Assembly (NCBI GenBank): GCA_951406725.2
Contig: OX597822.1
Coordinates: 12,090,001-12,154,000 of the forward strand
From: Octopus vulgaris
Lineage: Eukaryota
DNA: 64,000 bases
Direction: 5' to 3'
The notes under the pieces were generated by a model. The model worked only from the letters and a program-made list of their open reading frames with translations. It searched no databases and had not been told where the DNA came from. This document shows, one piece after another, positions 3,801 through 47,999 of the stretch (positions within the stretch are counted from its first letter, which is position 1; the number at the start of each line of letters is the position of its first letter). The position numbers were made by a program, and so were the translations under genes.

Positions 3801-3919
3801 GCTGTTTAGGCTCTGGCATATCAAAAAACTACACCTTACATTTCCTCCGCGTGTCATAAAAGGCGACTAAAAGAAGTCGAGGTAGCATTTGGACTCTGTC
3901 CGTGTAAAATTTCCCCAAG

Positions 3920-3962
3920 ACACCTGATGAAGTCTGGGGTGTATATCAGCCGAAACGTGTGC
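3920..3962 (+). ncRNA. Minimal hammerhead-ribozyme-like motif in a PLE-type tail
   Basis: CTGATGA-AGTCTG...CAGCC-GAAAC (3924-3956); followed by an aatgta-repeat tail and (TA)n. Confidence 0.55.
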
Positions 3963-5282: not shown

Positions 5283-5822
5283 TGTGTTCTACGTTTATTT
5301 GTGGTGTCCTGTACTCATATATATATATATATATATATATCCATGTATATATATCCATGTATATATACATATAGATGTAGGTGCGTACATATACAAATAA
5401 AAATACAGTACACATAAAGAAAGTCAATTCTGAATAGCGCTCCGTATTTTTCCACCGTCTTGGCTTAAAAAAGCCCTCAATGTTGGTTTCCTTGTCCTGT
5501 TTTTAGTCTTTATGTGTTCTGTATTTTTATTTGTATTGCTTTTACGTCCTGTTCTTGTCACTTTTTTCTTTCCTTGTTTTACCCCTCCGCAAAAGAATTT
5601 TATTTAATTCATTTTGCAGGAAGGACTGTTTCGGCCGGATCGTGTCCTGCCCTTACCTTCGAAACACGCATTAAGTCGAACCAGGGGCAGCTGATGAAGG
5701 GGAATATTCCTTGTATTGTTTGTCTTGTACCCTGTTTTTTCGTTGTTAAAAAAGTCCGTTTCTAGTTTGTTTTTATGTTTTCGTTTCTCGTTGTGTTCTA
5801 CGTTTATTTGTGGTGTCCTGTA

Positions 5823-17544: not shown

Positions 17545-17918
17545 ATCGCCGACTGCCTGTTGTAGGAGGACGCTAACTGTTCTCAGTCAGAAATCATCTC
17601 TGGTAGGCTCGAACATGGGCTCTTGATATTCCTGCAGTAAGGGTGCCATCCGGTGCAGGTGGAGCTATTGACGCAGAGAAGAATACGTGCCTCTCATGTA
17701 ATCTTTCGCATCCTCTCTATTGTCTCTCCAGAATCACTGGAATTAGGAGCTTCAGCGATCAGTTCTATTCATTGCACGGCAGCGCATTCTTTTCCCATGT
17801 GGCTGGGGAGATGTCTCAGTTCTTCATATGTCTCTTCCGCGCATTTGTGCATCGCAGCCTTTGGCCACTACGGCTCCGCATCCTCTGCTGCATTTCAGCG
17901 TACAAAAGGATTGTGTGA
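17545..17918 (-). mobile_element. RTE-type LINE C-terminal fragment, decayed
   Basis: ILLYAEM..RSRSGQRLR...KRHMK..ISPATWE matches the RTE post-RT region; flanked by (TA)n/(CA)n. Confidence 0.7.
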
Positions 17919-17935
17919 ATATATATATATATATA

Positions 17936-18225
17936 TTGTAACTTTCTCCGTTTTTCCCATCCCTGTTTTCGTATACATTCGCTGCTTTCTTCCAAGGAAT
18001 CTAATGCTCTTAGCTTAGTTTCTCCTTGTGGTTGACCAGGTTGGAGCAATCTCGAGAATAACAGTCGAAATTGCAAAGATAATCTGGAACTCGACTGAGG
18101 AAAGAAATTTCCGAATGACCTGGTTTTCTTTGTATAGTTTATCTGGATGTATTGTTGTCCCTTTCTTGTATCTGTCTGGATTTTTGGGTTCTTGTTCAAT
18201 TTTGTATTTATATATTATAATAAGA
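17936..18225 (+). mobile_element. Short TA-inserted repeat carrying the rearranged hammerhead motif
   Basis: About 290-bp T-rich block between microsatellites; contains the motif at 18046-18101. Confidence 0.55.
18046..18125 (+). ncRNA. Rearranged hammerhead-like motif, copy 3 (divergent family)
   Basis: GCAAT-C | TCGAG | AATAACAGTC-GAAATTGC | 15-nt linker | CTCGA | CTGAGGA. Confidence 0.6.
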
Positions 18226-18234
18226 GATATACAT

Positions 18235-18287
<53 letters not shown>

Positions 18288-19581: not shown

Positions 19582-19630
<49 letters not shown>

Positions 19631-19705
19631 TGTCTCTTGGGGCTAAATAGCAGTACCATTCTTCCCTTTCCTGGGACTGCCACATTATGGTGGCAGCAAA
19701 CCATC

Positions 19706-19740
<35 letters not shown>

Positions 19741-19745
<5 letters not shown>

Positions 19746-21152
19746 TCTTCAATTCCTTTTCCTTCCCTTCCAGCCCCTCTCACCTCCCCTTCACCCTTGA
19801 CATCAAATCACTGTATACGGTGATTCCCCACAACGACGGTCTCCTAGCTCTCCAACACTTCCTCGACCGTCGCCCCGACCCAACCCCTAGCACACCCACC
19901 CTCATCCGCCTGGCAGAGCTCGTCCTAACCCTCAACTGTTTCACATTCGCCGGGGAAACGTACCAACAAATGTCCGGGGTCGCGATGGGAACGAGAATGG
20001 GTCCCAATTTCGCCAATCTCTTTGTTGGCTACATTGAGGCCCAAGTATTTTCCCAATTCTCCGGGCCGACCCCAGAACTATACGGTCGTTACATAGACGA
20101 CTGTATAGGCGCCACCTCCTTTCCCGCGAACAACTCTGCCACTTCATCTCTTTCCTCTCTAACTTCCACCCCTCTCTACAATTCACTTCCACCATATCCA
20201 ATACTTCCGTTAACTTCCTAGATATCTCACTCAGCATCGACCACCCCTCCCACTCTCTTACCACCTCTGCCTTCTTCAAACCCACGGATTCCCACCTCTA
20301 TCTCAACTTCTCCTCCTCCCATCCCTTCCACACCAAACGGGCTATCCCCTACTCCCAGTTCCTCCGCCTCCGACGCTTGTGCAGCCGCGACCAGGATTTC
20401 GAGACCCAGACTCAATACCTGGCCCGCCTGTTCAGGCTTCGAGGATACCCACCTACCCTGGTCTTGAACGCCCTCGCCCGCGCTCGTCGCATCGACCGCA
20501 CCACCGCCCTTTCTCCTTCCAATCACCCACCCCCAACCGCACCCCCTTTCCCCTCCTTTTCCACCCCTCTACTCTACCCCTTCGTCGGAAGATACTTCGT
20601 GCCTTCCGTCGTCTCCAGCTCGATTCCACGACCCACCCCATTTTCCCCACTCCACCCCTGTCCTCTTTCAAACGAGCCCGGAATCTACGCGACCTCCTGG
20701 TCCGTAGCACCCTCCCTTCTTCCCCCTCGGCCCCACTCGGATCCTTCCCATGCTCCAGATCCCGCTGCAACACCTGCCCCTTCATCACCAACACCACTGC
20801 TGTCACCGGTTCCAACCGGCGAACTGTACGTATCGGGTATTCCTTTACGTGCACCTCGTCTGGAATCATATACTGCATTAAATGCAACCGCTGCAGGATG
20901 CTGTATATAGGACAGACGGGACGCCGGTTGTCAGACCGATTCACCGAGCATCTGCGGGATGTTCGTCTATTTTCCAATTCTCCCGTCGCACGGCACTTCC
21001 GCTCAGCCAGCCATTCCCCTGATGACATCTCGGTGTTTGGTCTTGCCCCACACAACGGCTCTCCCTAATCTAGGCTTCACTTGGAACAACGGTTCATATT
21101 CCTTCTACGGACTCTAACCCCACACGGACTCAACACAGCTCCCTCCTCTTAG
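19741..21152 (+). pseudogene. Penelope-like element ORF: RT + GIY-YIG endonuclease, 5'-truncated, two frameshifts and one stop
   Basis: LDIKSLYT, GVAMGTRMGPNFANLF, RYIDD, FLDI, KPTDSHLYL, CSRSRCNTC, IIYCIKC..YIGQTGRRLSDRFTEH, GLN. Frameshifts near 20122 and 20525; TAA at 21066. Confidence 0.95.
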
Positions 21153-21249
21153 TGACTGCGCTCCACTTCTCCCCCCGCATCTTTTATTTTTTATTTTTTA
21201 CTTTTTATTTTTGTTTATTAATTATTATTTATTTTTAATATTTAAAAAT

Positions 21250-23430
21250 TTTTATAATTGTCCTTATGCAGTCACACACACATACTCACGTACCCACGAA
21301 CACACCTACTCCCAACACACCAAACACACACAACGTACATGCACATGTACGCACACATACTTCCACACCCATACACACACCCACACACCCACACGTGCAC
21401 ACACACACATGCCTGTGCACATACACCAGGGACAATACTCATGCAGATACGCACAATCCTATAAACACCTAGCTGGGACGCACAGATACACGCACGTAAG
21501 CGCACACACGCACATGTACCTTACGCCCACACAACTCCAACCCCCCCCACACGTATACATTCACACACACACACACATACATACGTACACACACATAATA
21601 CATACATAGATACATTCATACATACATACACTCATACACACACACACACATACATACATACATACACATACATACATACATACATTCATACATACATACA
21701 CACACACATACATACATACACACACATACATACACACACAAAAAATACATACACACACACATACATACACACACACATACATACACACACACACACATAC
21801 ACACACACATACATACACACACATACATATACATACACACATACATACACACACACATACCCACCCACACACACGCACGCACACATACATACACAAACAT
21901 ACATACATACACACACGTACACACACACATACATACATACAACACACATACATACACAGATACACACATACACACAAACATACATACACACACATACATA
22001 TACATACATACACACACATACACAAATACACACATACATACACACACACATACACACATGCATATATGCATACACACATACATACATATACATACATACA
22101 CACACATACATATACACACACACACTTACACACATACACCCATCCATACATACATACACACTTACACACATGCACACACACATACACACACGCACACACA
22201 CACATACATATATACACACATACAAACACACATACATACATAGATACATGCATACACAAACATAGATATACATACATACATACACACAAACATACACACA
22301 CACATACACACACACACACGCACACATACATACACACACATACATACACATACACGTACATACACATACACGTACATACATACATACATACATACACACA
22401 AACTTACACACATACACATACATACACACACATACACACACATACATACATACGCACATACATACACACACATATACATACATACACAAACACATACACA
22501 CACATATATATACATACATACAAACACACACACACATGCACACATACACGCATGCACACATACATACATACACACACATACATATACTACATACATAAAT
22601 ACATACATACACACACATACATAAGCATACATATGTACACACACGCACATACACACATACACGCATGCAAAATACATACATACACACATACGTACATGCA
22701 TACATACACACACACATACACACACACATACATACATACATACACACACATACACACATACATACATACACACACGCATGCATACACACATACACACACA
22801 TACATACATACACACACGCATATATATACATACATACATACACATACACACACATACACACATACATACACACACACATATAAACACACATATAAGCCCC
22901 TACATTGTACACACACGCACACATATATATATACATTCACTCGCACGCACGTACACACACACACACATTTACATATATATATATACTATACACTCACACA
23001 CACATACACGCGTACAAACACACAAACTCACATACACACCGACAGATATACATACACAATATACACCCACCGCGCACGCACACATGCACACAAACACATA
23101 CAAACGCACACATACACGTACATACATACACTCTCACACAAATGAACCCACATATACATCCCCCTACACACACACACGTACTAGGGTTACGCCACACACC
23201 CACACTCTACGCATACACACACGAAACACACACACGCACACACACACACTACAAACAACACACACATATGATGTTTTTTGACCTGTCTTTGACCTACATT
23301 GACACAAACAGCTAGTAGTCATCACCACAGCTGGCTTTGTCATTATCTATTCACCAAAAAATACACACACACACACACACGCACGCACAAACACACTTGT
23401 CATCTTGCACACACACACACACACACACAC
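21250..23430 (+). repeat. About 2.2-kb degenerate (CA)/(CATA)n tract between the PLE ORF and its tail
   Basis: Directly visible; source of the HT/VC-rich pseudo-ORFs. Confidence 0.95.
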
Positions 23431-23732
23431 AGGCATTCCCTTTTTTGGAACTCTCTTGCATTATAAAACCATTTTTCAACTACCTCCAAATTCTGTTCTT
23501 TTCAACATGTGATCTCTTAAGCACCACCAGCTCAAATATTGTCTCCTCTGTCTTCCCTCCTTGGGATCTTTCCTTCTCCTTGTTTCCGACGAAGAGCTCC
23601 GCTCGAAACGTTAAACCCTCCTTCCCTTCTTTCCTGAGCGTCAATAATACTTTAATTGTTCCACGTCCTGCGTTGCTGTGTTTATTTCTTTTTTTTCCTT
23701 TTTTTCTGTGTTTTCTTGTTTGGATTAACTTT
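23431..23732 (+). mobile_element. PLE pLTR/tail with minimal hammerhead motif (23586-23613)
   Basis: CCGACGA-A-GAGC-TCC-GCTC-GAAAC-GTTA, with palindromic stem III AACGTT, downstream of and in the same sense as the PLE ORF; U4>C variant. Confidence 0.7.
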
Positions 23733-24210
23733 ATATAATGATGGTTTGCTGCCACCATAATGTGGCAGTCCCAGGAAAGGGAAGAATGGTACTGCTATTT
23801 AGCCCCAAGAAACACCATTTCTAGTTGGCTATGTGACCCAAGCGTTCTGTGCCATTAAGTTTTCAAATAGGGGAGATAAGCACCTCCACCCAACAAAGCC
23901 AGCTGTCAGAGAGTAGTTTCACTGTTGTTGCACTTCATCAGTCTGGATTAGGTTGGCTTTGCAAGCTGTCGGTGCTAAATAGCTGTCGAAAACTTATAGA
24001 ATTTCAAGTGAAATAAATTCACTGATCTACAAAATTAGAAATATTGTATTTCTAAATCTCTCAGAGAGAGTTATACTGCTGTAGCACGATAAAGTGATGG
24101 TTTGTCACCAACTTAATGCGGCAGTCCCAGGAAAGGGAAGAATTCTACTGCCCCAAGAAACTCCGTTTCTAGTTGGCTACGTGACACAAGCGTTCTCTGT
24201 CCTTAAGTTT
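23732..24210 (-). mobile_element. PLE-type non-autonomous element with partial direct repeat and hammerhead remnant
   Basis: 23757-23860 is repeated at 24115-24210. The minus strand reads CAGA-CTGATGAAGTG..GAAAC-TACTC-TCTG at 23906-23945. An inverted copy of its end lies at 19627-19711. Confidence 0.6.
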
Positions 24211-47844: not shown

Positions 47845-47907
47845 TCCCTTCGTCAGTTGTCCCCTGCTTAATCTACTCCACGTTTCGAAGTAGGGACAAG
47901 ACACAAC
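47845..47907 (-). ncRNA. Rearranged hammerhead-like motif, copy 2 (same family as 5641)
   Basis: Minus strand: TGTGT-C | TTGTCCCT | ACTTC-GAAACGTG | linker | GGGGACAA | CTGACGA. Confidence 0.55.
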
Positions 47908-47999
47908 TTCGATAAAACAGTCCTTCCCGCAAAGCAAATTGAATAAAATACATATATAAATACATGCATACACACACACACACATATATATATATAAAT

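Follow-up and report, generated by a model that had tools for sequence, protein, structure and literature searches.

The hammerheads closest to the structure described here are the type-SGC ribozymes (HRIMA-1 and SGC variants) and the two type-CSG sequences of Eckert et al. 2023 (PMC10085705). According to the accessible text of that paper, both types cleave in vitro and require a bridging I helix; SGC hammerheads need all four helices, reach rates of 0.004-0.19 per minute and have a linker from stem I to stem II of "typically three nucleotides". The authors assumed block C to be uninterruptible, with covalent continuity from A9 to 10.1 as a necessity, and patterns built on this assumption would therefore miss a form with a split block. 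The words "octopus", "mollusc" and "metazoa" are absent from the text of their supplement. Metazoan Penelope-like element (PLE) hammerheads, as far as the accessible accounts go, often require dimers. Among the PLEs, Naiads were reported to be without canonical hammerheads by Craig et al. 2021 (PMC8557442), whose search pattern, in the accessible text, was CUGANGA followed by GAAA within 7-17 nt, and who flagged eight of them, Naiad_Ovul included, as "HHR_half_core"; Naiad insertions are described there as 5'-truncated, placed in (TA)n targets and carrying inverted pieces. Neither a split-core hammerhead nor Naiad SGC or CSG types came up in a literature search that included the accessible parts of PMC4209133, PMC13725137 and bioRxiv 10.64898/2026.07.22.740005, most subscription papers lying outside its range.

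Here, we have analysed a window of 64,000 nucleotides of Octopus vulgaris DNA, in which a scan for the S-G-C order returned two instances, at 5646-5697 and 18051-18101. The second of these probably belongs to the tail of a likely non-autonomous Naiad-type retroelement with a conserved fold made of hammerhead parts and with predicted self-cleavage after C18051. Its features, and those of its host repeat and of two further instances in the window, are as follows.

18030-18034, plus strand: 5' strand of stem II, coming from upstream and pairing with 18062-18066; G18030 is the G10.1 equivalent
18036-18042, plus strand: 5' arm of I', the helix bridging stems I and II, pairing with 18081-18087
18043-18045, plus strand: GGA, with G and A kept, the shorter strand of a kink-turn-like loop that separates I' from stem III
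18046-18051, plus strand: block S by sequence, with the 5' strand of stem III, U16.1 (18050) and C17 (18051); cut predicted after AUC, 3' of 18051
18052-18056, plus strand: 5' strand of stem I, pairing with 18090-18094
18057-18061, plus strand: short linker connecting stems I and II, type-SGC-like, 1-5 nt across subfamilies
18062-18074, plus strand: block G, with the 3' strand of stem II (18062-66, C11.1 at 18066), G12-A13-A14 (18067-69) and the 3' strand of stem III (18070-74)
18075-18080, plus strand: longer strand of the kink-turn-like loop, made of a 3-nt bulge followed by G, A and U, its GA conserved
18081-18087, plus strand: 3' arm of helix I', from copies, descriptor and folding
18090-18101, plus strand: truncated block C, with the 3' strand of stem I and CUGAGGA, lacking a stem II strand behind A9
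18101-18131, plus strand: local hairpin after A9, 7/7 pairs, nested probability 0.82
17937-18215, plus strand: host repeat, a 5'-truncated family-2 copy between (TA)n runs, from alignment to a near-full copy
5620-5697, plus strand: second instance, family 1, same four-helix order with S-G-C at 5646-5697; 2917 candidates
47850-47928, minus strand: third instance, family 3; 2385 candidates

The strands run in the order II(5')-I'-III-C17-I-II(3')-GAAA-III-I'-I-CUGANGA. All parts expected of a hammerhead core are there, namely CUGANGA, GAAA, the U16.1-A15.1 pair and an H17 other than G, and stems I-III stand in register with them, including the G10.1-C11.1 pair. The S-G-C order, the short linker, the bridging helix and the full core are shared with type SGC. 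In contrast to that type as it appears in the accessible text of PMC10085705, the host is an animal retroelement and the 5' strand of stem II sits at the 5' end instead of behind CUGANGA, about 20 nt upstream of the cut site and with its G-C pair adjoining G12, so that block C is broken here, as seen in the family-2 copies. Helix I' joins the far end of this upstream strand to the far end of stem I. Type CSG, as described in the same source, has the same strand circle and the I helix, though its circle is opened between stem III and I' and that of the split form between A9 and G10.1, and the order C-S-G is not found in the window copy, where CUGANGA stands last. The C-G-S hammerheads of PLEs, going by the accessible descriptions, have in common with our fold the position at the PLE terminus, a conserved G10.1-C11.1 pair and the tolerance of a base between 9 and 10.1; they are three-way junctions that often need dimers, whereas the split form has a full stem III and forms a double pseudoknot. 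Judged by its sequence, the fold is of the hammerhead type in a new strand arrangement, resembling types SGC and CSG and belonging to neither as defined. Rfam gave no match at gathering score in the window and no hammerhead among the eight matches at E<=10 in 17900-18260.

The sequence elements named in an earlier note on this DNA, GCAAT-C (18046-51), TCGAG (18052-56), GAAATTGC (18067-74), CTCGA (18090-94) and CTGAGGA (18095-101), lie exactly where it had placed them, and stems I and III are Watson-Crick helices unlike those of the copy at 5646-5697 in sequence, as it had said. Its reading of the domain was right for the core and overlooked both stem II and the bridging helix, which are present and covary. 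Instead, it had the domain closed by an outer helix of ACCAGGT (18035-41) and ACCTGGT (18118-24), that is, it saw an S-G-C hammerhead without stem II. Both arms are present at these sites and match perfectly over 7 bp in the window copy, which speaks for this model; yet the helix is specific to this copy, since none of the 29 other family-2 copies keeps the seven pairs and neither arm is exact in any of them, its nested pairing probability in the window copy is 0.03, and it competes for bases of the conserved helix I'. We therefore rejected the outer helix as a feature of the family, and the model built on it is very improbable. A stem II made by the bases directly after CUGAGGA was rejected as well, being complete in 0/29 copies when insertions of 0-2 nt are allowed.

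The split arrangement, with stem II drawn from upstream, is well kept among the 29 other copies of family 2. The core is nearly invariant, with U16.1 in 29/29 and C17 in 27/29 copies; stem III is intact in 26/29, the 6-bp stem I in 15/29 (with at most one break in 27/29), all seven pairs of I' in 21/29, and stem II is paired in 26-28 of the 29 copies at each position. The family consensus, which the earlier note had proposed as a check, thus retains stems I and III and is devoid of the outer helix. Identity to the majority sequence amounts to 95.9% in the motif and to 96.4% and 94.7% in the flanks, and the changes within family 2 look like neutral decay. The window copy itself is old and weakened: its stem II (18030-34/18062-66) contains two G.U pairs and has lost a base, another pairing competes over C3-U4, and the sixth stem I pair of the family is gone. 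Stems I and II are pseudoknots and thus outside the scoring of nested folding, which gave I' plus stem III a probability of 0.95 in the window copy and, in all four copies folded, preferred rods in which CUGAGGA is partly or wholly paired.

More is learned from a sister subfamily (2b), which came from an unselected stretch (L170), shows about 71% identity to family 2 and has 1546 candidates. A machine alignment was made of 28/30 family-2 loci (L015 and L028 were left out for indels) and 16/20 sister loci (three without the core regular expression and L267, with an indel, were left out), and across the motif it has no gaps between the two subfamilies. In these 44 copies, stems I-III are paired in 93.9% of cells, as compared with 12-41% in slid registers. 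The majority sequences of family 2 and the sister differ at 11 of 32 positions of stems I, II and III with all 16 pairs kept, an outcome reached in 91 of 1,000,000 simulations under a simple null, and the changes made on both sides across a subfamily comprise one in stem I and two each in stems II and III; this strongest covariation is a single comparison of two lineages. Pair-count measures of the alignment tool do not exceed those of shuffles (352 of 500). Among 13 core positions, N7 alone differs. Helix I' of the sister needs a shift by one column, being 82.8% paired in the fixed register, and by eye it has lost one G-C pair from both arms.

A kink-turn is marked by a 3-nt bulge followed by tandem G.A/A.G pairs between two helices. 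This pattern occurs between I' and stem III in families 2 and 2b and, by eye, also in family 4. The G and A of the GGA strand (18043-45) are kept in 27/28 and 26/28 rows of family 2 and in 15/16 and 16/16 rows of the sister, and the GA of the long strand (18075-80) in 27/28 and 16/16, respectively, with a variable bulge. By eye, no kink-turn is evident in coral or ctenophore Naiads.

Chance also had to be weighed, as short motifs might come together within any repeat. The earlier note had suggested a comparison with shuffled sequence, the outcome of which depends on the descriptor. A loose two-helix S-G-C descriptor (4 bp per helix, one G.U allowed) had three matches in 664 kb, made up of the window and 60 unselected 10-kb stretches, and 0-3 matches with a mean of 1.0 in ten shuffles; it is weak by itself because it lies just about threefold above them, which, like the silence of Rfam, would suit a chance assembly. 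A four-helix descriptor, composed after the families had been seen, had three matches, two of them in the window, and none in each of 30 shuffles. Few loci of each family pass it (12/30 of family 2, 1/30 of family 1, 6/20 of family 3 and 3/20 of family 4), so it is strict, and the family-1 instance of the window fails it because of a mismatch in I'. Given this result, the compensatory changes between family 2 and its sister and the presence of the same fold at the 3' ends of Naiads from five phyla in the accessible consensus data, the probability of a chance assembly is negligible. A pattern scan of metagenomes had three matches, none with upstream partner strands, which we took as chance.

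Four helices with differing sequences are kept in seven subfamilies here, namely 2, its sister, 1, 3, 4, 5 and 6, and in all of them G-C adjoins G12, U16.1-A15.1 is fixed and H17 is C, A or U and never G. Families 1, 3 and 5 are related, with 69-72% identity, and family 2 cannot be aligned to them. The earlier note's view that the architecture is real and conserved across repeat families is borne out by these same four helices; its description of the locus as an independent instance holds for a diverged sequence, as families 1 and 2 share only 18-21-nt blastn scraps, and fails for a separate origin. The families attest conservation rather than separate origins, because they most likely descend from the 3' ends of Naiads.

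The host repeat itself points in that direction. The window copy corresponds to positions 481-776 of a near-full family-2 copy of 780 bp at 85% identity, and its matches in the genome, apart from itself, show 84-87% identity (40/40 scored, of 1303 candidates). Copies of the family end together in (TA)n at the 3' side and vary at the 5' end; the longest have about 780 bp and are non-coding, with 70-112 aa as the longest ATG-initiated reading frame in three near-full copies. Family 2 bears the insertion marks of Naiads, i.e., 5' truncation, a (TA)n target and inverted or tandem terminal pieces; one copy (L004), for instance, has its 5' piece inverted and a head piece placed after the tail. A splice-donor-like GTAAGT near the head of the family (L007:1050-1060) and an AG-GTAC beyond the tail of family 1 (L036, just past 1775) recall the intron of Penelope pLTRs. 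A long reading frame with an N-terminal GIY-YIG and a C-terminal RT, as in Naiads, was not found in family 2, nor was family-2 sequence in 14 Naiad N-terminal loci or in 30 Naiad RT loci. As no reading frame ties family 2 to Naiads, its origin is a matter of inference, and we regard it as likely a non-autonomous Naiad-type PLE. In the accessible parts of PMC8557442, Naiads share with our repeats the 3'-end position of the motif, the (TA)n targets, the 5' truncation and the inverted pieces; the split fold is not described there, and family 2 differs from Naiads as a non-coding element of about 780 bp.

Family 4 provides the direct link. In File S5 of PMC8557442, the 3' ends of Naiad_Obim and Naiad_Ovul, as far as that file is accessible, are the family-4 motif and have exactly the split fold. 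This motif has 412 exact pattern matches in the genome and none in the control, and in 11/30 loci Naiad RT matches are found upstream of it, at a distance of 671-1472 bp. By eye, the split form is found in at least 10 of the 54 published Naiad consensi, among the matches listed (CTGATGA 1-15 and 21-50 of 62; the other three cores 1-15 of 23, 25 and 43, respectively) and apart from motifs split by line ends, which such a reading misses. Its hosts in this file are a ctenophore, cnidarians, an acanthocephalan, an ostracod and octopus; beyond octopus, the entries are, with names assigned by table order, Naiad_Bfor, Naiad-3_Chem, Naiad_Amil, Naiad_Aacu, Naiad_Anas, Naiad-2_Movir, Naiad_Plae and Naiad-4_Dst. 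In all split-form consensi seen there, G-C adjoins G12; stem II of Naiad_Aacu has one mismatch beyond this pair, and stem I of Naiad_Bfor has only 2 bp. At least six other consensi, including Naiad-2_Nbra and Naiad-3_Nbra, carry by eye an intact hammerhead of C-S-G order that has the bridging helix I' too, and these entries stand in the nematode-to-spider part of the accessible file. Some entries in the accessible text of parts 17-19 have GAAA upstream of CCCCTGACGA and GAC behind the core, and may be true type SGC or another variant. Read from these consensus sequences, the split fold is what ends many of the Naiads reported without hammerheads.

We hold it to be somewhat favoured that an active Naiad hammerhead exists in at least five animal phyla, outside the scheme of six permutations, with a core of four strands that is naturally nicked between A9 and G10.1 and supported by the bridging helix, to which octopods add a kink-turn. 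If true, the statement that Naiads lack hammerheads would be overturned and the ribozyme would again be a near-universal PLE feature. The hammerhead core would then need no link from A9 to G10.1, contrary to current permutation schemes and search descriptors, and one strand circle would exist as a natural series opened at different points. Together with the intact CSG Naiads, the split form would constitute the first large family of non-circularly permuted ribozymes in animal genomes; such permutations, so far a matter of rare RNAs from metatranscriptomes, would extend to repeats whose candidate copies number thousands in a genome.

As for the mechanism, the backbone is a hairpin made of I' and stem III, and the loop at its end pairs with sequence on either side: stem II comes from the 5' flank, and the 3' flank provides both stem I and the CUGANGA strand. 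Loop and base of this hairpin would be brought together by the bend of a kink-turn located between I' and stem III. The strands would run in the circle known from hammerheads of types SGC, CSG and GCS, with the opening placed between A9 and G10.1, so that no covalent link would join stem II to the G12.A9 on which it would stack; I' and the short linker would keep stems I and II next to each other, as they do in SGC. Cutting of head-to-tail (pLTR) transcripts would free unit-length RNA for reverse transcription, a role proposed for other PLE hammerheads. The split fold likely cuts, or once cut, its own RNA; self-cleavage by the window copy itself is doubtful.

Footprints of the predicted cut were sought in truncation points and RNA reads. 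By hand count among the matches listed (the first 100 of 404 for family 2 and the first 100 of 764 for family 1), truncated (TA)n-joined copies that start exactly at the cut numbered 3 of 24 loci in family 2 and 1 of 29 in family 1, and most truncated copies of both families began at an internal TA microhomology. In family 4, two of 20 loci start at the cut, being neighbours of each other with a shared A. Truncation at the cut was rejected as support, given how few loci start there. RNA reads of a related organism cover both strands of family 2 with no pile-up of ends, and almost none of its raw RNA reads are from family 1. Variants in these reads, each at about 30-55% and counted singly, affect the sixth stem I pair (T>A, A>T), H17 (C>A) and N7.

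The lack of a cut footprint, like the missing link between A9 and G10.1 and the conserved kink-turn-like loop, would agree with a conserved fold that does not cleave and binds a protein or serves template recognition at the 3' end, its kink-turn and CUGA/UGAUGA giving it a box C/D-like look. We consider this rather improbable, as the conservation is of a catalytic kind (a free N7, an H17 that is never G, fixed U16.1-A15.1 and G10.1-C11.1 pairs), related Naiads in the accessible file carry the intact CSG form, a type proven to cleave, and the kink-turn is the very part that is not evident, by eye, in coral and ctenophore Naiads. We likewise give a small share of probability to the same ribozyme with its gap between A9 and G10.1 closed, be it by a second molecule, which the frequent need of metazoan PLE hammerheads for dimers in the accessible accounts would favour, by a protein, or by a four-way junction in which the 5' flank and the bases behind A9 form a fourth helix. 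Family 2 has a pyrimidine-rich flank ahead of G10.1 that can pair with the purine-rich bases behind A9, and nested folds do join the two regions. Against the fourth helix, no compensatory change was seen between family 2 and its sister, families 1, 3, 4 and 6 have by eye only weak, G.U-rich versions, and the bases after A9 fold into their own hairpin (probability 0.82), of which a similar one can be drawn by eye in the sister subfamily. A fold predicted to cleave itself and open between A9 and G10.1 is the reading we retain as probable.

The window also holds elements of other kinds. Downstream of our locus, at 19740-23730 on the plus strand, lies a PLE with an RT, a C-terminal GIY-YIG, frameshifts and a long CA-rich 3' region; its close relatives have open frames over 1000 aa, and a minimal hammerhead-like motif of type I is found near 23575-23605. 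The sequence of 19630-19705 recurs in inverted form as about 75 bp at 23735-23810. A link of the split fold to this PLE (19.7-23.7 kb) was rejected, as the four-helix descriptor had no match in 36 of its loci and it is a different element. Another repeat has an ordinary type-I (C-G-S) hammerhead-like motif at 3915-3960 on the plus strand, and matches of this type number 22 in the 664 kb and 0-2 in shuffles. One of the unselected stretches (L154, minus strand, cores at 2248, 2808 and 3368) contains three tandem type-I hammerheads 560 bp apart, resembling a non-LTR retrozyme array, and two others (L157:942, plus strand; L189:5607, minus strand) have type-I hammerheads with a long stem II and a palindromic stem III that belong to a further PLE family. 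Finally, three family-1 copies (L055, L032 and L042) carry, at the 5' junction, short fragments of their own 3' end in inverted orientation and make a good set for studies of second-strand priming in PLEs.
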